From: Escherichia coli
GTDB taxonomy: Bacteria > Pseudomonadota > Gammaproteobacteria > Enterobacterales > Enterobacteriaceae
Length of the DNA: 64,000 bases
Assembly: GCF_003334385.1 (NCBI RefSeq)
Contig: NZ_QOWN01000016.1
Reading direction: 5' to 3' (one strand)
The position numbers and the translations under genes are program-made. Below the pieces are notes generated by a model. That model saw only the letters and a list, made by a program, of their open reading frames with translations. It did no database searches and had not been told where the DNA came from. Positions 6,636 through 23,027 of the stretch are shown here, piece by piece (the stretch's first letter is position 1; each line of letters starts with the position of its first letter).

Positions 6636-7133
6636 ATGGATTTGTCACAGCTAACACCACGTCGTCCCTATCTGCTGCGTGCATTCTATGAGTGGTTGCT
6701 GGATAACCAGCTCACGCCGCACCTGGTGGTGGATGTGACGCTCCCTGGCGTGCAGGTTCCTATGGAATATGCGCGTGACGGGCAAATCGTACTCAACATT
6801 GCGCCGCGTGCTGTCGGCAATCTGGAACTGGCGAATGATGAGGTGCGCTTTAACGCGCGCTTTGGTGGCATTCCGCGTCAGGTTTCTGTGCCGCTGGCTG
6901 CCGTGCTGGCTATCTACGCCCGTGAAAATGGCGCAGGCACGATGTTTGAGCCTGAAGCTGCCTACGATGAAGATACCAACATCATGAATGATGAAGAGGC
7001 ATCGGCAGACAACGAAACCGTTATGTCGGTTATTGATGGCGACAAGCCAGATCACGATGATGACACTCATCCTGACGATGAACCTCCGCAGCCACCACGC
7101 GGTGGTCGACCGGCATTACGCGTTGTGAAGTAA
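6636..7133 (+). CDS. sspB: ClpXP specificity adaptor SspB
   Basis: 165-aa ORF; acidic C-terminal tail ending ...GGRPALRVVK. Confidence 0.95.
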   Translation: MDLSQLTPRRPYLLRAFYEWLLDNQLTPHLVVDVTLPGVQVPMEYARDGQIVLNIAPRAVGNLELANDEVRFNARFGGIPRQVSVPLAAVLAIYARENGAGTMFEPEAAYDEDTNIMNDEEASADNETVMSVIDGDKPDHDDDTHPDDEPPQPPRGGRPALRVVK

Positions 7134-7136
7134 TAC

Positions 7137-7168
7137 AAAACAGGCCCAGGCGGCCTGTTTTGTCTTTT
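7137..7168. terminator. bidirectional terminator between convergent sspB and dcuD
   Basis: AAAACAGGCCCAGGCGGCCTGTTTTGTCTTTTT hairpin with flanking A/T runs. Confidence 0.7.
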
Positions 7169-7175
7169 TAATGAC

Positions 7176-8543
7176 TTAATAAAATAGCGTGATTGTGGCA
7201 ATCATATTCACCACGAAACCGACTGCCATGGGGATCGCTGTCCGCTTCACCACCGCAAAAGGCGAAACGCCTGCAATTCCTGACGTAACGACCACCACCG
7301 CAGTAATCGGCGAAACCGCGCGCGCTAGCGTCGTGGCAAAATGCATCGGCATAATCATTACAACCGCTGGTACATGTAGTCCGGCTGCGATATTCGGAAT
7401 AAGACTGGCAAATGACATAAACGGCGCATTGCCAGAGCCCATCACAATGGCACAAATGGCAATGACCAGCGCCATAATAATCATCACGCCAATACCGCCC
7501 AGACCAGAATGCTCCGCCCCCCTGATAACCGCATCGACAGTGCCAATCGTCGTTAAGCCTTTCGCAAATATTTCACCCGCGACCACCAGCGTTACCACGT
7601 TGGCAAACTGCGTACCCATGCCGTCAAAAAACGCCTGCACATCGTCCATTGTTTCGCGCAAGTTATGCTTGCGGAAGAACTCAACAAACATCGTCACAGT
7701 CAAACTCAGTAACATCACCACCACCAGATGCAGTTCTGACTGCATCAGCCCGACGTGGGCGAGGAACAGCGAGCCGAGCATCAGGATTAACGGCATCACA
7801 GGTAAAATGGCGTAATAGAGCGGCGGGACATTATCGAGAGCTTTTTGCTCTGCCTGTTCGTGATTGATATTTTTATCTTTTTTGTCAAAAGCGCGTTGCA
7901 CGAAAAAGTGGGAGATCGCCACCGAGATAATGACGCAAGAGGCGACCGGAAGCTGGTAGTGGAAGAAGTATGTGGCAATTTTCATTCCCGCTACCTGGGC
8001 AGCAAAAATGGAGTTCGTTTCCAGAATCCCCCACTCAATGGACATCGTGGTTGCGATAACTGCCACCGCAGAGAGACGACTTACTCCCAGACTCACCAGC
8101 GTCGGAAATAAGGTGACCATCAGCAACATACCCAGACCGGAGGCGCTGGTAATAAACTGCGCCATGATTTGGCCGATGACGTAAGTTGCCGACAGAATAA
8201 TATACGGCGAGCGAATGAGTTTTAACGGGCGGCTTAACAAGCTCACCATCGCGCGACTGGCCCCTATGCGCTCCATGTAGCGGGCATAACCGCCCACCGC
8301 CATAATCGACAGCCCCAATCCGGCAATGCGGTTGGACAGCATGCGCAGGATTTCATTATAAATATCGACGATCAAGTAGCCGCTGCTTTTGGTGGGATCG
8401 AGTACACCACCGAACCCTAACCAGACACCGCACATCATCAGGAAGATACCTGCGGCAGCCAGCACCACCTGAGGTTTGTAGTTTTTCAGGATCAAATAGC
8501 CCATCGTAATTAATACGATGACAGATATAATTATGCCGAACAT
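7176..8543 (-). CDS. dcuD: putative C4-dicarboxylate transporter, DcuC family
   Basis: ORF 7176..8561; start at [22 protein letters not shown] with GGAG RBS, 455 aa; polytopic membrane protein. Confidence 0.9.
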
Positions 8544-12375: not shown

Positions 12376-13061
12376 ATGTCGTTACTTGCACAACTGGATC
12401 AAAAAATCGCTGCTAACGGTGGCCTGATTGTCTCCTGCCAGCCGGTTCCGGACAGCCCGCTCGATAAACCCGAAATCGTCGCCGCCATGGCATTAGCGGC
12501 AGAACAGGCGGGCGCGGTTGCCATTCGCATTGAAGGTGTGGCAAATCTGCAAGCCACGCGTGCGGTGGTGAGCGTGCCGATTATTGGAATTGTGAAACGC
12601 GATCTGGAGGATTCTCCGGTACGCATCACGGCCTATATTGAAGATGTTGATGCGCTGGCGCAGGCGGGCGCGGACATTATCGCCATTGACGGCACCGACC
12701 GCCCGCGTCCGGTGCCTGTTGAAACGCTGCTGGCACGTATTCACCATCACGGTTTACTGGCGATGACCGACTGCTCAACGCCGGAAGACGGCCTGGCATG
12801 CCAAAAGCTGGGAGCCGAAATTATTGGCACTACGCTTTCTGGCTATACCACGCCTGAAACGCCAGAAGAGCCGGATCTGGCGCTGGTGAAAACGTTGAGC
12901 GACGCCGGATGTCGGGTGATTGCCGAAGGGCGTTACAACACGCCTGCTCAGGCGGCGGATGCGATGCGCCACGGCGCGTGGGCGGTGACGGTCGGTTCTG
13001 CAATCACGCGTCTTGAGCACATTTGTCAGTGGTACAACACAGCGATGAAAAAGGCGGTGCT

Positions 13062-13065
<4 letters not shown>
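12376..13065 (+). CDS. nanE: N-acetylmannosamine-6-phosphate 2-epimerase
   Basis: ORF 12334..13065; start at [16 protein letters not shown], 229 aa. Confidence 0.93.
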
Positions 13066-14398
<1,333 letters not shown>

Positions 14399-14416
14399 AA
14401 CTTAGTTCGTTTTAAA

Positions 14417-14444
14417 GATTCTGCAGACACTGTCTGCAGAATTC
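14417..14444. repeat. 28-bp near-perfect palindrome (solo copy) between convergent yhcH and yhcG
   Basis: GATTCTGCAGACACTGTCTGCAGAATTC; 19 bp after yhcH stop and 13 bp before yhcG stop codon; same family as the copies inside yhcG and after gltD. Confidence 0.8.
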
Positions 14445-14457
14445 GAAACCGCTGAAA

Positions 14458-15585
14458 TTAACGGCGTCTATAGCCTTCCTCTAGCACCGCCTGTGTTCGA
14501 ACGAGTTCATCTGCGAGTCGTTTCTCATCAGGTAGTTGCATCTTATATTCGCTTGCCAGAACGGTGTTAGGCAAACCTGCCAGAGCATAATGCGCTTCTC
14601 CGGCTCCTTTCTCTGCACAGAGAACCAGACCGATGGGCGGATTTTCATCCGGTAGCGTCCAGTGCTCTTTGGCGTAGTTGAGATACATATTCATCTGTCC
14701 GGCATCGCTATAGCTGAATTTGCCCACTTTTAGATCGACGATTAGCAGGCAGCGTAAACGGCGGTGGAAAAACAGCAGATCGACACGAAACCAGTTGTCA
14801 TCAATGCGTAACCTTCGCTGCCGACCAACAAAGGCAAAATCATCCCCAAGTTCCAGCATGAAATCCATCAGGTGGTTGATCAGCGCCTCCTCAAAATCGG
14901 ATTCTGAATATTCATCTTTCAATTCCAGAAATTCGAGCACAAAGGGATCGCGTATCGCCTGTTGCGGAAGAATATGCGTCTCGGCAGGAGCGTGTTGTTG
15001 CAGCATGGCTGATTTGTCATGTGACAGTAGTGTCCGCTCATAAAACTGGGTCGCAATTTGCCGCTCTAGCTGGCGAACAGACCAGCCACAGCGGAGCGTC
15101 TCTTTTTCATAAAAGCTGCGGGCGTCAGCGTTTTTAACGGAAAGTAAACGGACGTAGGTGGACCTGGGCAAGGGGAAAGATTTGGCAGACAGCGTCTGCC
15201 AAATCTTTGCCGATGGGAATTCTGCAGACGGTGTCTGCGGAATTCCCAATGGTGTTAATTCGCCAGACATTGTCTGGCGAATTTCAACATGTTGAAAAAA
15301 GAGGTAAAAAAGCCTCATTTGGCGTAAGTTTTTTGCAGAGAACCCACGCTTATACCTTAGACATAAATCCTTTGATAGTCGCTTGATTAGCTGCGCACCA
15401 TACGCAGCCCTGGCCTCGCCACCTTGTTCAAATTCGACAATTCGTCGGCCAATTTCCTGGTACGTCGCGGTCATTAACGCGTTAACGCTACGTACCGTTT
15501 CCGTCCGGGCGCTATCGACCAGATGAATAATACCGTCGTGGATTTGCTGGTAGCCTGCTGTGGTTCCTTCTGAGAGCGATTCCAT
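14458..15585 (-). CDS. yhcG: DUF1016-family protein with PD-(D/E)xK nuclease-like C-terminal domain
   Basis: 375-aa ORF; C-terminal ...RVDLLFF...LLIVDLKVGK resembles a D...(D/E)xK nuclease core; contains in-frame palindromic repeats. Confidence 0.85.
   Translation of the reverse strand: MESLSEGTTAGYQQIHDGIIHLVDSARTETVRSVNALMTATYQEIGRRIVEFEQGGEARAAYGAQLIKRLSKDLCLRYKRGFSAKNLRQMRLFYLFFQHVEIRQTMSGELTPLGIPQTPSAEFPSAKIWQTLSAKSFPLPRSTYVRLLSVKNADARSFYEKETLRCGWSVRQLERQIATQFYERTLLSHDKSAMLQQHAPAETHILPQQAIRDPFVLEFLELKDEYSESDFEEALINHLMDFMLELGDDFAFVGRQRRLRIDDNWFRVDLLFFHRRLRCLLIVDLKVGKFSYSDAGQMNMYLNYAKEHWTLPDENPPIGLVLCAEKGAGEAHYALAGLPNTVLASEYKMQLPDEKRLADELVRTQAVLEEGYRRR
15180..15283. repeat. three tandem 39-bp units, each with a ~25-33-bp palindrome, in frame within yhcG
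   Basis: ATTTGGCAGACAGCGTCTGCCAAAT (15180-15204), GGGAATTCTGCAGACGGTGTCTGCGGAATTCCC (15215-15247), AATTCGCCAGACATTGTCTGGCGAATT (15257-15283); encode IWQTLSAK / IPQTPSAE / IRQTMSGE on the minus strand. Confidence 0.85.
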
Positions 15586-15769
15586 TATCTGTCCCTTTAT
15601 ATGGAGCTAAGTTGAATAATGGAATGAGCTATACTCTGGGGGGTGAGCACTGAACAATTAAGAACAGCGTATTACATTTACTTTCCCCAAGATATGCGAA
15701 GAGCTTTCCTGAAACATTAACCGATCGTATAAAACGAATGCCTGATAGTACTCCTGTCCGGCATTGTTA

Positions 15770-16486
15770 TCACAAGTAGACTACGCTTATCACAGCTTTC
15801 CCATCAAGTTCGATTTTTTCTGAACCGCCTAAATCATTCGCGATAGATGCGCTCACCTGAAGCGGTATAATGGCGTTCGTTACAGGAGTTGGGGTTGTTT
15901 CACCTGGTTTTACAAAGGTGTAATAATAGCTTTGATCGACTGCAAGCGGATAAGCGGTGAGCGTTTGCCATGCTCTTTTTTGCCCTGTTATGACGGCATC
16001 TGCACCTGCTATTGATACAGCTAACGTCTGGCTACCATTGCTGGCACTAATGTTGTTGCTATCAATTAACACGGCATAACTACCGATATTTTTATTATCT
16101 TTTGTTTTCCCTAAGCCGAATAAGCGCGTTGTCTGGCTAATATAACCTCCGCCATTTAAGGTATATTTTACACCACTCTGACCCCCACTATCTTTTCCGG
16201 TGGTCATACTATCCATTCGTGTATCACGAGCGGTAATCGCAATGCTGGTAGCGGATTCGCAAGTTATAGTCATATTAATATTACGTGTTCCAATCTGTGT
16301 GTAGTGCTGCGTTGAAAGTCTATTGACTGAATGACTACCGAAGTTAACAACTCCGCCGTTGCTTAGTATTGGAGTACAAGCTGCAGCTTCCAGAGTCACC
16401 TTAACGTCAATTGATACTCTATCAGCGGCTTGCGCTGACATGGCAAAAAAGGCACTTCCGGCAATCAGTAATTTTACATTGTTCAT
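15770..16486 (-). CDS. yhcF: fimbrial-like protein (DUF1120 family), secreted
   Basis: 238-aa ORF with signal peptide MNNVKLLIAGSAFFAMSAQA; paralogous to GltF; last gene of the chaperone-usher cluster. Confidence 0.8.
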   Translation of the reverse strand: MNNVKLLIAGSAFFAMSAQAADRVSIDVKVTLEAAACTPILSNGGVVNFGSHSVNRLSTQHYTQIGTRNINMTITCESATSIAITARDTRMDSMTTGKDSGGQSGVKYTLNGGGYISQTTRLFGLGKTKDNKNIGSYAVLIDSNNISASNGSQTLAVSIAGADAVITGQKRAWQTLTAYPLAVDQSYYYTFVKPGETTPTPVTNAIIPLQVSASIANDLGGSEKIELDGKAVISVVYL

Positions 16487-17034
16487 TTTGCCTCCACCAG
16501 GACCGTCAGATTGCCTGTAATATCTGTCATGTCGGTTAGTTCCCCTTCATCCTTAAAAGCTGGAGCCATTGTCAGTGTGAGGCTAACGCTTTTACCGCTA
16601 TCAATTACCACTTCTTGACCATTTTGCATAAACACCAGCCAATTATTGGGGGAAGTACTAATTGATGCTGTTCCTGTGCTGCCCGGATTGTCATTTTTGC
16701 CACTGGCTAACGCCAGGTCGAGATTGTTACTACCTGAAAATGCATCGCTGGCGATCAGATTTAATGAACCATTCGGGCCAAATCCAAATCCGTTGTTGGA
16801 AATATTAGCGGTATTCAACTGAACACGAATATGAGCGTCCTGATCGCATTGCATTACCAGCGTGATTGTTCTGTCTGCTAATTGTGTTGTTTTACCCCGG
16901 TCAACTTGGCGCATGGCAGCACTTCGTTTGCCATAGTCGATATTTTGTATGCTACTGGAGATATTACACTCTGCCTGAGCGGCCATGGCGAAGTTCAGCA
17001 GCAGGCATCCTGTTATTATCCGTTTCATTGGCAC
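16483..17034 (-). CDS. yhcE: fimbrial-like secreted protein, apparently intact
   Basis: 183-aa ORF with signal peptide (..LLLNFAMAAQA); overlaps yhcD stop and yhcF start; no IS sequence present. Confidence 0.75.
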   Translation of the reverse strand: MPMKRIITGCLLLNFAMAAQAECNISSSIQNIDYGKRSAAMRQVDRGKTTQLADRTITLVMQCDQDAHIRVQLNTANISNNGFGFGPNGSLNLIASDAFSGSNNLDLALASGKNDNPGSTGTASISTSPNNWLVFMQNGQEVVIDSGKSVSLTLTMAPAFKDEGELTDMTDITGNLTVLVEAK

Positions 17035-19406
17035 TCTCCTGTTGCTGTCTCATAGAACACATCTTTTGGTGCATCTTCTGGGAATGTAAGGTGAATACGG
17101 CATGATTGCTGCTCATCTTTTATATCTAGCACCATGTCCGGTTTGATGTTATTGAGGAATACAACACCGTCATCCACTGATGTTGTCAGATAGTTGCCTT
17201 CACTATCTTCAATCGCAACGCCTCTGGGCAGTTTTTTGCCGTCGGAAAGTGTGATATTGAGTAATGCACGGCGTTGTGTTATCGCACTGAATCCGACTTT
17301 CCCTACTGCACCACGGCCTTGTTTGATCATTTTTGTGCCGTTACCGATATCGACATTTTTTGGCAAGCTGGCGGTATCGATCTCAACTCCTGATGTTCGC
17401 CACGACTGGATTGATGGAATGACGGCATTACCCCGAAAATCTGTCCATACTGGGCCTGCCTGAGATGTAATTCTGACACCTGCAATATTGTTATCCATTT
17501 TTGCGATGGCGAAAGTGTCATTGATAGTCCACGGTGAAAAGGTCACTCCCTGATCATGTACGGCAATACCACCTGACATCGTACCGTTGTAAGTACGGCT
17601 ATCACTGCCGCTTGCTCCTGCGGCAAGGCTGACTTGGGTGTAATGGAGATTGGAACTGATACTGCCGTTCAAGCTCGTTTCACGTTCGTCGTGATCTCGT
17701 TCAGCATTCACATAGTAGGACATCTCATCTGAGACGACTCCCATGACACCAGTACCATAGTGGGTTTTATGATCGTCATGGCGAGTATACAGTGTGGCGG
17801 TGTTTGATCTGCCAAATGGAATACTGATGTTGACGTAGAACAGATCACCATCGTCTTCATTATTTTCTGAAGCACTAAGTTGATGCTGCCAGTTGACGGA
17901 AACCGTGGCGTGTTTGAACGCTTTGTTCCAGTTAATATTAAGGTTGCTTGAGTCATTGTCACCGTCGTAACTATATGTTTTATAGCCACTGATGTTGAAA
18001 CCACCCAGAATGGAGTTAGACCAGTTTAAACCAAGCGCATAAGTGCTTTTAGTCGGATCGGTATAATCATCATCAATCGCTTCAGACAGTTCGCGATAAT
18101 GGCGATCAGATCGAGTGAGGCTGGTTGTTAGCCCAAGTGAAAATGGGAGATTGTAGTTCGCGTCAAGACGATATTTCTGTCCTTGCAGTGAGTCTTTCGT
18201 ATCCTGCGATGTACTAATTTGGCTGCTCACTGTTAAATCGGGCAGGGGAACCAGACTCGACCGGATTGATGCCGCCTGATAATTTTCTGCTACGATAACG
18301 CCGCCGTTCATTGCACTCCAGCGTGTCAGATTCCATCCGCTCGATGCACTAATTACCCAAGGTGATTCGTCATAGTCATCGTCTACCCGCCCTATCGCGA
18401 AGCGATAACCCTGGAAGCTTTCTACATGCTGATTAAACAGGGTGGAGGGAACAATATAGTTGTGCGAACTACCGTCTGTTTCGACAACGGTGACATTAAG
18501 ATCACTATTACCATTGCGAACAGGTACATCAGGGATAGTGAATGCGCCCGCAGGAACCAGAATGGAATGAATTAAAACTCCTTGTTGACGAATCTCGACA
18601 CGAGCCTGAGAGGTGTTGGCTATACCAGTAACTTGCACACCACTGCCGCTGGTTTGCAATGCGTTGTCCGGTGCGATTTCGATACCGTAAATACTGGCTC
18701 CTTCCAACACGCTATTATTGAGGTTAACTTCACCTGCTCGCATGAGTGTTTTAAGATCTGTAAAGGTACGTTGAAGGTAGGTTGACGAGTTCTGGTTACT
18801 GAATGTGCCATTTGTTTGTGTAAGGAACTGATGGCTGCGTAACATCCAGTCATTAATATTAATCCCGCCTTCAAGTGCAGCCTGGGAGTAGTCCGAACTC
18901 CCATTAGAAAATTCTGCACGGCTGCTCATCAGAGAGTAGTTTAGCAGCGCAGCTGTTCCACCAGTTGCTGCGTTTGTGAGATCCAACCCTATGGGAATGA
19001 TCGCCTGTGGTGAAACGATAATATCTAACGCTTCCTGGTTAGGTAATGGTGTGATTGTGGTACCCGGGTAGGACAATATATAGTCGTAACAGCCATTTTT
19101 TTCTTCAGAAGGAATTTTTAAACCGGCTTGTTGCAGAAATGCCTGATCAAGACAAATGTCGCCATTTTCATCAAAGCGCGTAGCAATGTTGCCTTTTTTT
19201 TCGCCATTTACTGATACTATCAGTGAATATTCACCTGGCAAAAAACGGGCTGAACGGGAAAAATAATGCGATATATTAGGATCTACACCTAGTGATTTTA
19301 ATGTTTCCCGATCAAAATCAACAGCGGCAATCTCTATACCATCTGCATTGGCTGGGGGAGAAAAGGCAAAACCAATGGTGTAGGCCAGTAACGTTTTTTT
19401 TAACAT
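17025..19406 (-). CDS. yhcD: fimbrial outer membrane usher protein
   Basis: ORF 17025..19424 (799 aa); likely start at MLKKTLLAYTIGFAFSPPANA (793 aa); usher-sized, between chaperone and subunit genes. Confidence 0.88.
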   Translation of the reverse strand: MLKKTLLAYTIGFAFSPPANADGIEIAAVDFDRETLKSLGVDPNISHYFSRSARFLPGEYSLIVSVNGEKKGNIATRFDENGDICLDQAFLQQAGLKIPSEEKNGCYDYILSYPGTTITPLPNQEALDIIVSPQAIIPIGLDLTNAATGGTAALLNYSLMSSRAEFSNGSSDYSQAALEGGININDWMLRSHQFLTQTNGTFSNQNSSTYLQRTFTDLKTLMRAGEVNLNNSVLEGASIYGIEIAPDNALQTSGSGVQVTGIANTSQARVEIRQQGVLIHSILVPAGAFTIPDVPVRNGNSDLNVTVVETDGSSHNYIVPSTLFNQHVESFQGYRFAIGRVDDDYDESPWVISASSGWNLTRWSAMNGGVIVAENYQAASIRSSLVPLPDLTVSSQISTSQDTKDSLQGQKYRLDANYNLPFSLGLTTSLTRSDRHYRELSEAIDDDYTDPTKSTYALGLNWSNSILGGFNISGYKTYSYDGDNDSSNLNINWNKAFKHATVSVNWQHQLSASENNEDDGDLFYVNISIPFGRSNTATLYTRHDDHKTHYGTGVMGVVSDEMSYYVNAERDHDERETSLNGSISSNLHYTQVSLAAGASGSDSRTYNGTMSGGIAVHDQGVTFSPWTINDTFAIAKMDNNIAGVRITSQAGPVWTDFRGNAVIPSIQSWRTSGVEIDTASLPKNVDIGNGTKMIKQGRGAVGKVGFSAITQRRALLNITLSDGKKLPRGVAIEDSEGNYLTTSVDDGVVFLNNIKPDMVLDIKDEQQSCRIHLTFPEDAPKDVFYETATGECQ

Positions 19407-19426
19407 CCTTGTCGCTCCAGGCAAAG

Positions 19427-20101
19427 TTATTTTAAGTCAGTGACATATTTATTACCGCGATAACCATATCGGCTGGCTGGGTAAAACTCGACTTTTGTAT
19501 CCGTAGCGTTTGTTAATGCAGTAGTTGTACTGGTGTGTGGTAGAAAATAGGTCTTATTTATAGCCCCCGTTTTTCCTGAAGGGAGCGTTTTAAATTGTAA
19601 GGTCATACGAACGACATAATTACTGGGGTTGCTAATCTCAATTTGGTCGCCATTTTTACGCCATTCCAGGAATTTCCAGGTCTCTCGCTCTTCCGGCAGG
19701 GAAGCCGGGTGGATCAGTACAGGTAGATCCTGACGAATTGAAACAGTAACTCTGCTGCTCTTGTCATCTTTTGGTGGAATACCTTCGAACGTTACGCGTT
19801 TCAGCTCTTCTGATTGCAGAGGAACAGTCGCCTGAAGTAAAAATCGAACCTGTTGTACTTGACCGGCTTCAACACGAATAACGGGCTGAGTCGGGATTAA
19901 ACGAATTGATTTATTGCTTTCAGGCAAATCAACAATGGTGGTGTAAAGCAATGAAGGATGATCATCTGTATTCTTAATATTAATACTAGCTTCACCACGC
20001 TTTTCATCAACCAGCAATACTGATGTTTCAGGAACCATCCCTGTGGCTAAGGTATTCATTGATGTTGTTATAAATACAGTGAATGTAATGTGTCTGAGCA
20101 T
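19427..20101 (-). CDS. yhcA: fimbrial periplasmic chaperone (PapD-like)
   Basis: 224-aa ORF with signal peptide; 2 bp upstream of usher gene. Confidence 0.88.
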   Translation of the reverse strand: MLRHITFTVFITTSMNTLATGMVPETSVLLVDEKRGEASINIKNTDDHPSLLYTTIVDLPESNKSIRLIPTQPVIRVEAGQVQQVRFLLQATVPLQSEELKRVTFEGIPPKDDKSSRVTVSIRQDLPVLIHPASLPEERETWKFLEWRKNGDQIEISNPSNYVVRMTLQFKTLPSGKTGAINKTYFLPHTSTTTALTNATDTKVEFYPASRYGYRGNKYVTDLK

Positions 20102-20272
20102 TTAAATTAAAACTCCTGTAATAATGATAAATAACGCAGAAACATATTGTTAATATATGTTATGCACTGTTTGCGATGAGATTGATTAAGACAGACCATG
20201 TCATAGGGCATAATCTGTCCGAGTTATAGCTAACTGGTTAATGCGTAAAAATAAAAACTGTATTACAAGTTC

Positions 20273-21037
20273 TTATAAATACTGAACGCTGATAGTGACG
20301 TTACCATCCAGTTTGATCGTTTCATCAGAACCAAGAATAGTATTGTCATTTACCGCAGCATCAATCAGTAACGGGAAGGTGACCGCTGTAATGGCAACAG
20401 GTGTCAGTTCCCCTGTTTTTGCAACAGAATAACCGCGCTCGATTGCTGAGCAACTTGTCAGCGAGCAGAATGCGCCATTAGATGAGGCTTTCCATGTGGG
20501 GGTCGCTGCTGACCAGTGGTCAGTTTGAATCAGGTCGACAGGAATTTCACCTGTATCGTCCGCCGCGTGAATCCCACCATTAGACCTGTCAATACCAATG
20601 GATGCAGCGCCAATTTTTTGTCCATTAGGCGCAGAACCTAAACCAAAGGCGTTTTTCGTTCCCTTCATATCTACGAGAGTATCATAAGCTTTTTCAATAT
20701 AGGATGTGTCGTTTAACGCTACAATGGTCGACTGACGGTTATCCTTGGAGGTTACAGCAATTAGCGTTGGTGCTGTGCAGGTTATATTTAATGTGCTGTT
20801 TTTGCGGCCCAGTTGAACCAGTTTATTACTTTTACCGGTCGGATTCAGCGCACTGTTATGATGTTTCCCATAGTCAACAATGCCGCCGCCCGTAACAACT
20901 GGGGTACATGCACCAGGGGTATACTCGCCGATGATAGTTAATTCTGTATCAGTTGAATCTGTTGCCATGGCACTGAATGCTGCAACAGAAAGTGCTGCAC
21001 AAATAGCAGCTGTTGTGAGGTTCTTTTTGAAAAACAT
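20273..21037 (-). CDS. gltF: GltF, periplasmic fimbrial-subunit-like protein (DUF1120)
   Basis: 254-aa ORF with signal peptide MFFKKNLTTAAICAALSVAAFSAMA; paralogous to YhcF; first gene of the chaperone-usher cluster. Confidence 0.85.
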   Translation of the reverse strand: MFFKKNLTTAAICAALSVAAFSAMATDSTDTELTIIGEYTPGACTPVVTGGGIVDYGKHHNSALNPTGKSNKLVQLGRKNSTLNITCTAPTLIAVTSKDNRQSTIVALNDTSYIEKAYDTLVDMKGTKNAFGLGSAPNGQKIGAASIGIDRSNGGIHAADDTGEIPVDLIQTDHWSAATPTWKASSNGAFCSLTSCSAIERGYSVAKTGELTPVAITAVTFPLLIDAAVNDNTILGSDETIKLDGNVTISVQYL

Positions 21038-21555
21038 ATGAACATATCCTTAATAACAAATTTATTTTTTAAAATAAAAAGCTGAAGCAGTATATATATC
21101 TGTTTGTGAATGTAAATAAATAACTCGTTCAGAAATAGCCAACTTGCTGGGATGTATTTATTTAATGAATTTTATAGTTACGATCATGTGAATAATAAGG
21201 TGCTGGTGAGGTGGTTTGTGGTGATAATTATTCATTACATGAATGTTTGCGCTGAAAAATAGGAAAATATATAGATAATTAAGGATAATATATTGGTTTT
21301 TTATATTCATATTTTGTATATTAATATCGAGACAATTTACATGGAATGAAAAGACTGAATAGCTTGCAGAATCGGTATTGTCAGAGGTGTTAACAAGTAA
21401 TTGAGACGGATTGTAAATGAGAAATTGCTTGATGTGCTTCACTCATCAGACTTGGTGAACAAAGCACAATTTATTGAAAATTATCCCTATTATAGGAAAG
21501 GTCAAACGCTCATGCCGCATTTGCCAGAAAACAACGCGCACTTCGTCAGTAATTT

Positions 21556-21583
21556 GATTCGCCAGACACAGTCTGGCGAATTC
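21556..21583. repeat. 28-bp near-perfect palindrome (solo copy) immediately 3' of gltD
   Basis: GATTCGCCAGACACAGTCTGGCGAATTC; ends 13 bp before the gltD stop codon at 21597 (i.e. just downstream on the gltD strand). Confidence 0.8.
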
Positions 21584-21596
21584 ATTGTTACCTCGC

Positions 21597-23027
<1,431 letters not shown>

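Follow-up and report, generated by a model that had tools for sequence, protein, structure and literature searches.

An uninterrupted copy of the Escherichia coli gltF-yhcADEF ('Yhc') chaperone-usher fimbrial operon

The gltF-yhcADEF genes of E. coli are listed as the beta-class 'Yhc' fimbrial operon in published surveys (Wurpel et al. 2013, PMC3559732; Del Canto et al. 2017, PMC5216030), and the K-12 YhcD usher serves as a beta-clade representative in PMC3559732, PMC3032704 and PMC5216030. GltF is already treated as a putative pilin in published fimbrial surveys, where the IS5 insertion in K-12 yhcE (IS5::yhcE) is also on record, and IS-free Yhc loci were described in phylogroup A ETEC strains (PMC5216030). 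No beta-class fibre had been characterised experimentally as of the 2017 survey, and deletion of yhc in an ETEC strain left adherence to Caco-2 cells unchanged (PMC5216030).

The Yhc operon shares with the classical pili (type 1 Fim, P pili Pap and F1 antigen Caf) an usher made of an N-terminal domain, a barrel and a C-terminal domain, a PapD-like chaperone, subunits with a predicted pilin fold, an N-terminal extension and a penultimate C-terminal Tyr, and a probable major-subunit gene in first place followed by a stem-loop. It differs from them in that its subunits belong to DUF1120 and not to Pfam Fimbrial (PF00419), in that Val replaces Arg8 and Pro replaces Lys112 in its chaperone YhcA, and in the absence of a recognisable two-domain adhesin, the sole tip candidate being the single-domain YhcE. 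Four Salmonella models (NCBIfam PRK15301-PRK15304) were also related to the operon. YhcD passed PRK15304 as a subfamily member, while YhcE, YhcF and GltF matched PRK15301, PRK15302 and PRK15303 (E 1e-15 to 1e-31) with scores far under the equivalog cutoffs, so that these subunits are relatives and not orthologues. At the profile level, these matches indicate a homologous operon in Salmonella.

The region studied here lies in a window of 64,000 nt of E. coli DNA, the whole stretch that was analysed, and is the known gltF-yhcADEF operon in its uninterrupted form. The locus had the same place, gene order and flanks (gltD and yhcG) as the K-12 Yhc locus, from which it differed by the lack of IS5 in yhcE. 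The features were as follows.

15770..16486, minus strand: yhcF, 238-aa DUF1120 pilin-like subunit (open reading frame (ORF) list; identical RefSeq locus named yhcF, DUF1120)
16483..17028, minus strand: yhcE, 181 aa, uninterrupted (ORF list; RefSeq 'YhcE family protein')
17025..19406, minus strand: yhcD, 793-aa outer-membrane usher (NCBIfam PRK15304, Pfam)
19427..20101, minus strand: yhcA, 224-aa PapD-like periplasmic chaperone (NCBIfam PRK09918, Pfam PapD_N)
20273..21037, minus strand: gltF, 254-aa DUF1120 pilin-like subunit, first gene of the operon (ORF list, Pfam)
16658..16661, no strand assigned: CTAA, the IS5 target site duplicated in K-12 yhcE, single and unoccupied here
20189..20220, minus strand: 12-bp stem-loop in the gltF-yhcA spacer (RNA fold and E. 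albertii alignment)
21038..21553, minus strand: AT-rich spacer upstream of gltF (GC 0.29 over 21000-21499)
21555..21582, no strand assigned: palindromic hairpin right after the gltD stop codon (dG -22.6 kcal/mol, z -5.6, no U-tract)
15715..21594, no strand assigned: segment missing in O111-type E. coli genomes, in which yhcG abuts gltD (window compared by BLAST with L003; annotation of L003)

A preliminary description, made from the sequence alone, had reported five co-oriented minus-strand genes with every frame open, and the ORF list agreed with it. It had allowed for an overlooked inactivating change, and none was found, with 0 internal stops in all five ORFs. In the ORF list, yhcE extended over 16483-17034 (183 aa from GTG) and yhcD over 17025-19424 (799 aa from TTG), while the RefSeq starts were ATG codons at 17028 (181 aa) and 19406 (793 aa), respectively. 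The yhcF/yhcE and yhcE/yhcD junctions overlapped by 4 nt each, and gaps of 20 nt and 171 nt separated yhcD from yhcA and yhcA from gltF. All five genes were full length and retained signal peptides, and the protein lengths were equal to those of the E. albertii orthologues (254, 224, 793 and 181 aa), except for YhcF (238 vs 240 aa). GltF and YhcA were identical to the K-12 proteins, whereas YhcF and YhcD each differed from them by one residue (G81S and P668S, respectively), both missense differences affecting positions that vary among homologues. The region was contiguous with IS-free E. coli genomes; strain 298, for instance, showed only 2 mismatches over 6101 nt.

Split BLAST matches at the CTAA site in yhcE overlapped at query 119-122, and relative to a K-12-like genome the window had exactly 1199 nt fewer, which equals IS5 plus one CTAA copy; in the K-12-like locus this insert is flanked by CTAA. 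The preliminary description had stated that MG1655 yhcE is a pseudogene split by IS5; this split was seen in K-12-type genomes, and the window had a continuous yhcE ORF without the junction. yhcE was unbroken at the K-12 site in 785 of the 1141 carrier genomes, the split copies among the matches listed came from K-12 laboratory derivatives only, and RefSeq annotations of several hundred genomes show the IS-free form. The interruption of yhcE by IS5 is damage that belongs to the K-12 lineage and does not typify the species, and the uninterrupted operon is the usual state in carrier strains. As the majority of carriers and the orthologous loci of E. albertii and Enterobacter are likewise uninterrupted, it is reasonable to call this the ancestral uninterrupted state, as had been suggested. 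Published work and routine annotation already cover this locus, the class to which it belongs, the IS5 lesion of K-12 and the existence of intact copies; the finding is accurate but unexceptional.

Profile-HMM searches upheld the proposed chaperone and usher assignments, YhcA and YhcD both scoring above curated NCBIfam cutoffs. YhcD matched PRK15304 along the entire model (positions 1-801 of 801) at 1271 bits, the cutoff being 723, and possessed a complete usher architecture in Pfam, consisting of PapC_N (E 2e-9), the Usher barrel (E 4e-150, model 2-549 of 549) and PapC_C (E 8e-12). Being the K-12 YhcD except for P668S, it is an usher of the beta clade (Yhc type). YhcA, a PapD-like chaperone with a short F1-G1 loop, reached 319.7 bits against PRK09918 (cutoff 183), with Pfam PapD_N at E 1e-23. 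Pfam PapD_C was not detected in YhcA itself but was present in some homologues, and the YhcA profile, which matched Caf1M, CupB2, FimC and PapD in the PDB, aligned with Caf1M, FimC and PapD through both domains, to residue ~205.

In classical chaperone-usher systems, Arg8 and Lys112 anchor the C-terminal carboxylate of the subunit. These invariant cleft residues (PapD numbering) were looked for in YhcA by alignment and neither was found: V28 occupied the Arg8 position, which held V/I/L in 18 homologues of the family alignment, and P127 occupied the Lys112 position, an invariant Pro with which Caf1M K139 aligned. The residue mapping relied on alignments to CupB2, Caf1M and PapD, the PapD sequence having been entered by hand, together with the family alignment. 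Because the replacement is family-wide, across many genera, and is accompanied by invariant GMVPET (first strand) and R-Q-D-x-P (G1 strand) motifs, it appears to be a conserved alternative and not a sign of decay. These two motifs may replace the Arg8/Lys112 clamp, and without Arg8 and Lys112 in YhcA the classical mechanism may not transfer unchanged.

Among the subunits, GltF matched Pfam DUF1120 with E 1.8e-45 and proved, as the preliminary description had it, to be a YhcF paralogue within this family (30% identity, BLASTP E 5e-26); Pfam Fimbrial was found in none of the subunits, with DUF1120 in its stead. The GltF signal peptide ended at SAMA|TDST and its C-terminus was SVQYL, and the corresponding sequences of YhcF were SAQA|ADRV and SVVYL. 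YhcF possessed a 15-residue N-terminal extension before the conserved Cys, such an extension was present in the YhcF/GltF family alignment, and an N-terminal strand was predicted at residues 23-34 in the AF2 model of YhcF (pLDDT 84), for which the best PDB fold matches were self-complemented FimA monomers (E 1e-7). The mature form of YhcE, by comparison, begins one residue ahead of the conserved Cys and so has no donor strand; the extension was absent across 34 YhcE-family members. YhcE also lacked the penultimate Tyr and the C-terminal V-x-Y-L motif kept in GltF and YhcF. No significant match between YhcE and DUF1120 came from direct BLASTP and Pfam searches (E 0.012 and 0.12), whereas hhalign of the YhcE family, with a profile built from a search of 1.8 billion proteins, against the DUF1120 family gave a probability of 95.8% (E 6.6e-9) over 158 columns. 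The AF2 model of YhcE (pLDDT 91.8) best matched, in the PDB, the CS20 pilin and N-terminally truncated pilins, PapE, FimG and the PapG pilin domain among them. The pilin fold matches (AF2 and Foldseek) had a probability of 1.00 but modest TM-scores of 0.3-0.58, and when the GltF and YhcE sequences were searched against every PDB chain, no related structure emerged, the only matches being chance ones with E of at least 0.0015. At the nucleotide level, yhcE (63%) and yhcF (66%) were the fastest-diverging genes relative to E. albertii, yhcE most of all, compared to 94% identity for gltD, as expected if the subunits are exposed. We infer that YhcE, a shortened and remote relative among the DUF1120-type pilins that lacks the N-terminal donor strand, is a candidate tip or initiator subunit, GltF being the probable major subunit.

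Gene identities, intactness, the absence of IS5, distribution and synteny were observed, and established chaperone-usher biology supplied the model of assembly. It is very probable that the region is a beta-class (Nuccio-Baumler) Yhc operon, uninterrupted, whose products would assemble along the following lines. GltF, from the first gene, and YhcF would be exported as pilins by the Sec pathway, bound by the chaperone YhcA on reaching the periplasm and then delivered to the YhcD usher, where they would polymerise by donor-strand exchange through N-terminal extensions of 15-18 residues. Lacking a donor strand, YhcE could enter only as the first, distal subunit, that is, as tip or initiator. A promoter of its own, located in the AT-rich region between gltD and gltF, would probably drive the operon, which is likely not expressed under laboratory conditions, as is the case for other cryptic fimbrial operons of E. 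coli. A wider reading, in which beta-class systems combine a non-canonical chaperone-subunit interface with fibre initiation by a donor-strand-less single-domain YhcE and no two-domain adhesin, is speculative, with the balance of probability clearly against it. If it were true, the intact operon would offer a tractable E. coli model for a clade never characterised as of the 2017 survey (PMC5216030).

Several other readings of these data bear on what the operon builds. About 79% of complete E. coli genomes did not carry it, carriers showed independent IS5 and IS3 insertions, and ETEC strains have been described with shortened forms of yhcF and with a premature stop codon in yhcD, along with the deletion that lacked an adherence phenotype (PMC5216030). 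This absence and these lesions fit weak selection and, with the missing canonical Arg8/Lys112 of YhcA, could point to a decaying, unexpressed relic with intact ORFs that builds no surface structure. That is unlikely, however, in view of five full-length genes with signal peptides and E. albertii-like lengths, a chaperone replacement that is family-wide alongside invariant GMVPET and RQDxP, a gltF-yhcA spacer hairpin maintained by compensatory changes, and the persistence of the same architecture in Enterobacter, Citrobacter, Klebsiella and Leclercia. Within an assembling fibre, YhcE could be another accessory (periplasmic assembly factor, terminator or anchor) instead of the tip pilin, a role that we regard as less probable though worth keeping in mind. 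The authors of PMC5216030 called its function unclear, it lacks the C-terminal motif of GltF and YhcF, and a monomer modelled so confidently without a donor strand may have a self-sufficient fold. Nonetheless, its profile homology to DUF1120 pilins is full length and joined to a pilin-like fold, its gene diverges fastest in the operon, and terminators of classical systems have the N-terminal donor strand that YhcE lacks; in the related operon L010, moreover, its position is held by a 375-aa two-domain protein, the usual form of tip adhesins. A tip or initiator role for YhcE is preferred.

The remaining alternatives concern the place of gltF and the origin of the segment. The name 'gltBDF' persists in the literature and in RegulonDB-derived lists, gltF is on the same strand as gltBD, and the hairpin behind gltD lacks a U-tract, which leaves room for read-through from gltD into gltF. 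That gltF is, as first proposed, the third gltBDF gene with a role in nitrogen regulation and only incidental fimbrial neighbours is nevertheless highly improbable. GltF is a YhcF paralogue that carries a signal peptide and a pilin-like DUF1120 domain; the gltD-gltF spacer measures 559 nt, is mostly AT-rich and has its own promoter-like site; and the roughly 79% of complete E. coli genomes without the operon have gltBD without gltF. Constant linkage and co-orientation with gltBD, as for a cytoplasmic regulator, was not observed: the operon of Enterobacter roggenkampii has the opposite orientation with respect to gltBD and converges on gltD, its leading, gltF-like DUF1120 genes lying at the far end, and the more distant operon L010 has the same gene order without any glt genes nearby. 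Synteny therefore places gltF in the fimbrial operon, as the preliminary description had argued. Later genetic studies (Grassl et al. 1999; Goss et al. 2001) reportedly placed GltF in the periplasm and showed nitrogen regulation to be independent of it. A study of gltBDF regulation (PMC1784095) contained nothing on gltF itself. As for origin, about 1140 of 5426 complete E. coli genomes carried the operon, and this patchy distribution, a GC content of 0.38-0.48 compared to 0.55-0.60 in the flanks, a divergence from E. albertii far above that of flanking gltD, and 91% identity between carriers and non-carriers in the adjacent 5' part of yhcG (98% in the flanks) would suit recent horizontal acquisition by phylogroup A E. 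coli. We regard this as improbable and prefer an ancestral locus that other lineages have lost. E. albertii has a homologous operon in the same place beside gltD, and Enterobacter has an inverted one, the order of subunit(s), chaperone, usher and YhcE-like subunit being kept in both and in the distant operon; fimbrial genes typically have a low GC content and diverge quickly; and at least two empty-site structures, O111-type and ST131-type, suggest repeated loss. An origin by an integrative element was discarded, since the O111-type boundaries showed neither an integrase nor a tRNA nor any direct repeat.

The genomic significance of the uninterrupted locus is small, and its residual value is practical: the copy is intact and two residues off K-12, and K-12 genetics are available. 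The operon would be a convenient starting point for studying fibre formation by DUF1120 subunits, the holding of subunits without Arg8/Lys112 and the role of YhcE.

Regarding the spacers, the stem-loop at 20189..20220 was retained in E. albertii through about four double substitutions, and probably serves, downstream of the putative major-subunit gene gltF, as an intercistronic attenuator or stabiliser. The AT-rich spacer at 21038..21553 is the probable promoter and silencing region of the operon; it contained a sigma-70-like site (TTTACA-16-TATACT at 21116-21089), which is a lead only, as the promoter/terminator scan did not exceed shuffled sequence (10 vs 13.8 expected and 5 vs 4.9). No known RNA family was found by Rfam over 13000-23000 of the window (E <= 1), and the spacers accordingly have no described sRNA or riboswitch. 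A 94-aa ORF in the AT-rich spacer (21158-21442) was of low complexity and looked spurious. Finally, members of the palindrome family represented at 21555..21582 also followed nanQ and occurred in three copies inside yhcG.

The five co-oriented minus-strand ORFs from gltF to yhcF were found exactly at the positions given in the preliminary description, and all five frames, which it had called open, were free of internal stops:

15770-16486, minus strand: yhcF, ORF of 238 aa
16483-17034, minus strand: yhcE, ORF of 183 aa from GTG (RefSeq start ATG at 17028, 181 aa)
17025-19424, minus strand: yhcD, ORF of 799 aa from TTG (RefSeq start ATG at 19406, 793 aa)
19427-20101, minus strand: yhcA, ORF of 224 aa
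20273-21037, minus strand: gltF, ORF of 254 aa

Two of the gene junctions were 4-nt overlaps and the other two were gaps of 20 and 171 nt. Gene lengths equalled or approximated those of the Escherichia albertii orthologues. Operon GC was 0.38-0.48 compared to 0.55-0.60 in the flanks, dropping to 0.29 in the gltD-gltF spacer. Within this 29%-GC spacer upstream of gltF, a 94-aa GTG-started ORF (21158-21442, minus strand) had a low-complexity, AT-driven sequence, which suggests that it is no gene.

All five proteins start with a typical signal peptide, read directly from the sequence. The chaperone and usher assignments were borne out, as YhcA scored 319.7 bits against the fimbrial chaperone subfamily PRK09918 (NCBIfam, curated cutoff 183) and YhcD 1271 bits against the usher subfamily PRK15304 (cutoff 723; model positions 1-801 of 801), with Pfam domains PapD_N in the former and PapC_N, Usher and PapC_C in the latter. 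With curated cutoffs passed and no internal stops, neither a failed chaperone or usher search nor an inactivating ORF change was found. GltF, described earlier as a fimbrial-like paralogue of YhcF, indeed contained DUF1120 (E = 1.8e-45) and shared 30% identity with YhcF over almost its full length (E = 5e-26). The locus is an ordinary accessory fimbrial operon, correctly read in that description.

The preliminary description had called yhcE uninterrupted compared to K-12. In JME66, a K-12-like genome, the annotated yhcE consists of two partial genes flanking an IS5 transposase. Deleting a 1199-nt insert from JME66, made up of IS5 (ends GGAAGGTGCGAA...TTCGCACCTTCC) and one copy of the duplicated CTAA, restored the window sequence with 3 SNPs in the operon, and the unoccupied target CTAA lies at 16658-16661. 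The residue differences from the K-12 alleles (YhcF G81S, YhcD P668S) fall at positions variable among homologues. A 261-nt probe spanning the CTAA site found matches in 1141 of the 5426 complete E. coli genomes, and 785 of these had it unbroken. Among 40 of the 1141 matching genomes, taken at even spacing, all 13 split matches shared one breakpoint and came from MG1655/K-12-type laboratory strains or other isolates of K-12-like genome size (4.54-4.68 Mb). The uninterrupted yhcE is therefore the normal state among carriers, and IS5::yhcE is a lesion of the K-12 lineage.

The observation is thus confirmed and its interpretation supported, and the finding is already known in the literature. K-12 is listed as 'gltF-yhcF, beta, IS5::yhcE' (Archer et al. 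2011, PMC3032704), Yhc was described as a sporadic beta-clade type with no intact representatives in the dataset (Wurpel et al. 2013, PMC3559732), gltF-yhcADEF is counted among 12 chaperone-usher operons of MG1655 (Qiao et al. 2021, PMC8174762), and adhesiomeR lists the genes as Yhc fimbriae (PMC11184843). Complete IS-free loci were reported in phylogroup A ETEC, with GltF and YhcF as putative subunits, YhcE of unclear function, 353 database hits for the full-length YhcE, and Caco-2 adherence unaltered by yhc deletion (Del Canto et al. 2017, PMC5216030). RefSeq annotates an identical locus with the same reading. The residual interest is modest: the beta class was without experimental characterisation as of the 2017 survey (PMC5216030), and the present analysis noted two features, namely that the chaperone has no Arg8/Lys112 clamp and that YhcE is predicted to be a pilin lacking a donor strand.

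In classical PapD-like chaperones, Arg8 and Lys112 clamp the subunit C-terminal carboxylate, whereas across 18 aligned YhcA homologues (Escherichia, Citrobacter, Kluyvera, Enterobacter, Leclercia, Klebsiella, Hafnia) the counterparts were V/I/L (V28 in YhcA) and an invariant Pro (P127). This mapping agreed in three alignments, namely CupB2 ('tRvvf' opposite 'sVllv' of the family), Caf1M (K139 opposite P) and PapD (K112 opposite P127, V10 opposite L30), the last using a PapD sequence whose numbering reproduces R8 and K112. What the family keeps instead is G-M-V-P-E-T at the start of the mature protein and R-Q-D-x-P on strand G1; the pattern looks like a conserved alternative rather than decay, and the classical mechanism may not carry over unchanged to this family.

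Direct searches with YhcE gave scarcely any connection to known proteins. When an Escherichia YhcE profile was run against 1.84 billion representative proteins, 112 relatives came up, mostly secreted, of 175-200 aa, with a common Cys pair and a D-Y-G motif, and profile-profile comparison linked this family to YhcF/GltF over nearly its full length (probability 95.8%, E = 6.6e-9, 158 columns). When the confident AlphaFold2 model of YhcE (pLDDT 91.8) was compared with solved structures, the top hits were all chaperone-usher pilins (E = 5e-5 to 1e-4, TM-scores 0.33-0.56), including the CS20 pilin and N-terminally truncated PapE, FimG and the PapG pilin domain. The YhcF model (pLDDT 84.3), with an N-terminal strand at residues 23-34, best matched full-length self-complemented FimA monomers (E = 1e-7). 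In the alignments, 15-18 residues separate the cleavage site from the conserved Cys in YhcF and GltF, compared to a few residues at most throughout the YhcE family, and the ..V-x-Y-L C-terminus of GltF and YhcF is absent from YhcE. Since donor-strand exchange, the established mechanism of chaperone-usher pili, lets a subunit without donor strand enter only first, at the distal end, we propose YhcE as a candidate minimal tip or initiator subunit. In a more distant related operon (L010), the product of the gene after the usher (7001-8128) is 375 aa long and has two YhcE/DUF1120-like domains, as would be expected of a tip adhesin of the two-domain kind; the YhcE profile search also gave several other proteins of 374-398 aa.

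The complete operon was present in 1121 of 5426 E. coli genomes, and the empty site takes two or more forms. In O111:H8, yhcG adjoins gltD and ~53 nt of unrelated sequence replace the counterpart of 15715-21594; ST131 has neither yhcG nor the operon, and there nanQ and gltD are convergent neighbours. E. albertii has the order gltB-gltD-gltF-yhcA-yhcD-yhcE-yhcF-nanQ without yhcG, with 94% identity to E. coli in gltD and 63-80% in the operon, where yhcE (63%) and yhcF (66%) are most divergent. In Enterobacter roggenkampii (CP032291.1; L006 6316-12312), a homologous operon lies between sspB and gltD, inverted relative to gltBD and converging on gltD, headed by two tandem gltF-like DUF1120 genes followed by a chaperone, an usher, a 176-aa gene in the yhcE position and a third DUF1120 gene; in L010 the gene order is kept away from any glt genes. 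These comparisons show the gltF-type gene to be linked to the chaperone and usher genes and not to glutamate synthase, in line with the earlier doubt about the glt affiliation of gltF. A regulator role is said to have been proposed for GltF by Castano et al. in 1992 and to have been contradicted by Grassl et al. in 1999 and Goss et al. in 2001. Recent acquisition of the operon is possible, and the empty sites together with the synteny across relatives favour an old resident locus, probably lost repeatedly in E. coli.

Directly 3' of the gltD stop lies a strong hairpin (dG -22.6 kcal/mol, z -5.6) without a U-tract, followed by ~520 nt of AT-rich DNA up to a candidate sigma-70-like site (TTTACA-16-TATACT) ~50 nt 5' of the start codon of gltF. 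This site is a lead only; in the promoter/terminator-type scan, the number of sites overall was not above that of shuffled sequence, and no Rfam family matched in 13000-23000. The gltF-yhcA spacer, in which laboratory evolution of K-12 fixed IS5 insertions (PMC8403718), holds one further element:

20189-20220, minus strand: stem-loop, 12 bp

E. albertii retains this stem-loop by way of some four double (compensatory) substitutions, and it resembles intercistronic hairpins after major-subunit genes of other fimbrial operons, again as a lead only. A palindrome family of 26-29 nt (AATTCGCCAGACAnnGTCTGGCGAATT) was also found:

14415-14443: palindrome following the nanQ stop
15177-15205, 15216-15244, 15255-15283: three palindromes inside the yhcG coding sequence
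21554-21582: palindrome following the gltD stop

The yhcG copies have an exact 39-nt (13-codon) spacing and encode the repeat EIRQTMSGELTPL / GIPQTPSAEFPSA / KIWQTLSAKSFPL. As copies follow nanQ and gltD and ST131 has one between these genes (L004 5999-6027), the 7.1-kb yhcG-to-gltF segment is bracketed by hairpin copies, with a single copy in the empty site.

Over 15251-15714, which takes in the 5' portion of yhcG and the spacer between it and yhcF, identity to O111:H8 was 91% compared to 98% in both flanks, and the O111 yhcG is frameshifted within this counterpart; the variable segment may reach into yhcG. Local damage differed among other operon carriers: in strain 298 (L001 236-2586), a fragment of IS3 and the reverse transcriptase of a group II intron lie beside a truncated yhcG, and in strains 300709 and LCP17S3_I1, IS3-family transposases are annotated inside the span of the operon match.
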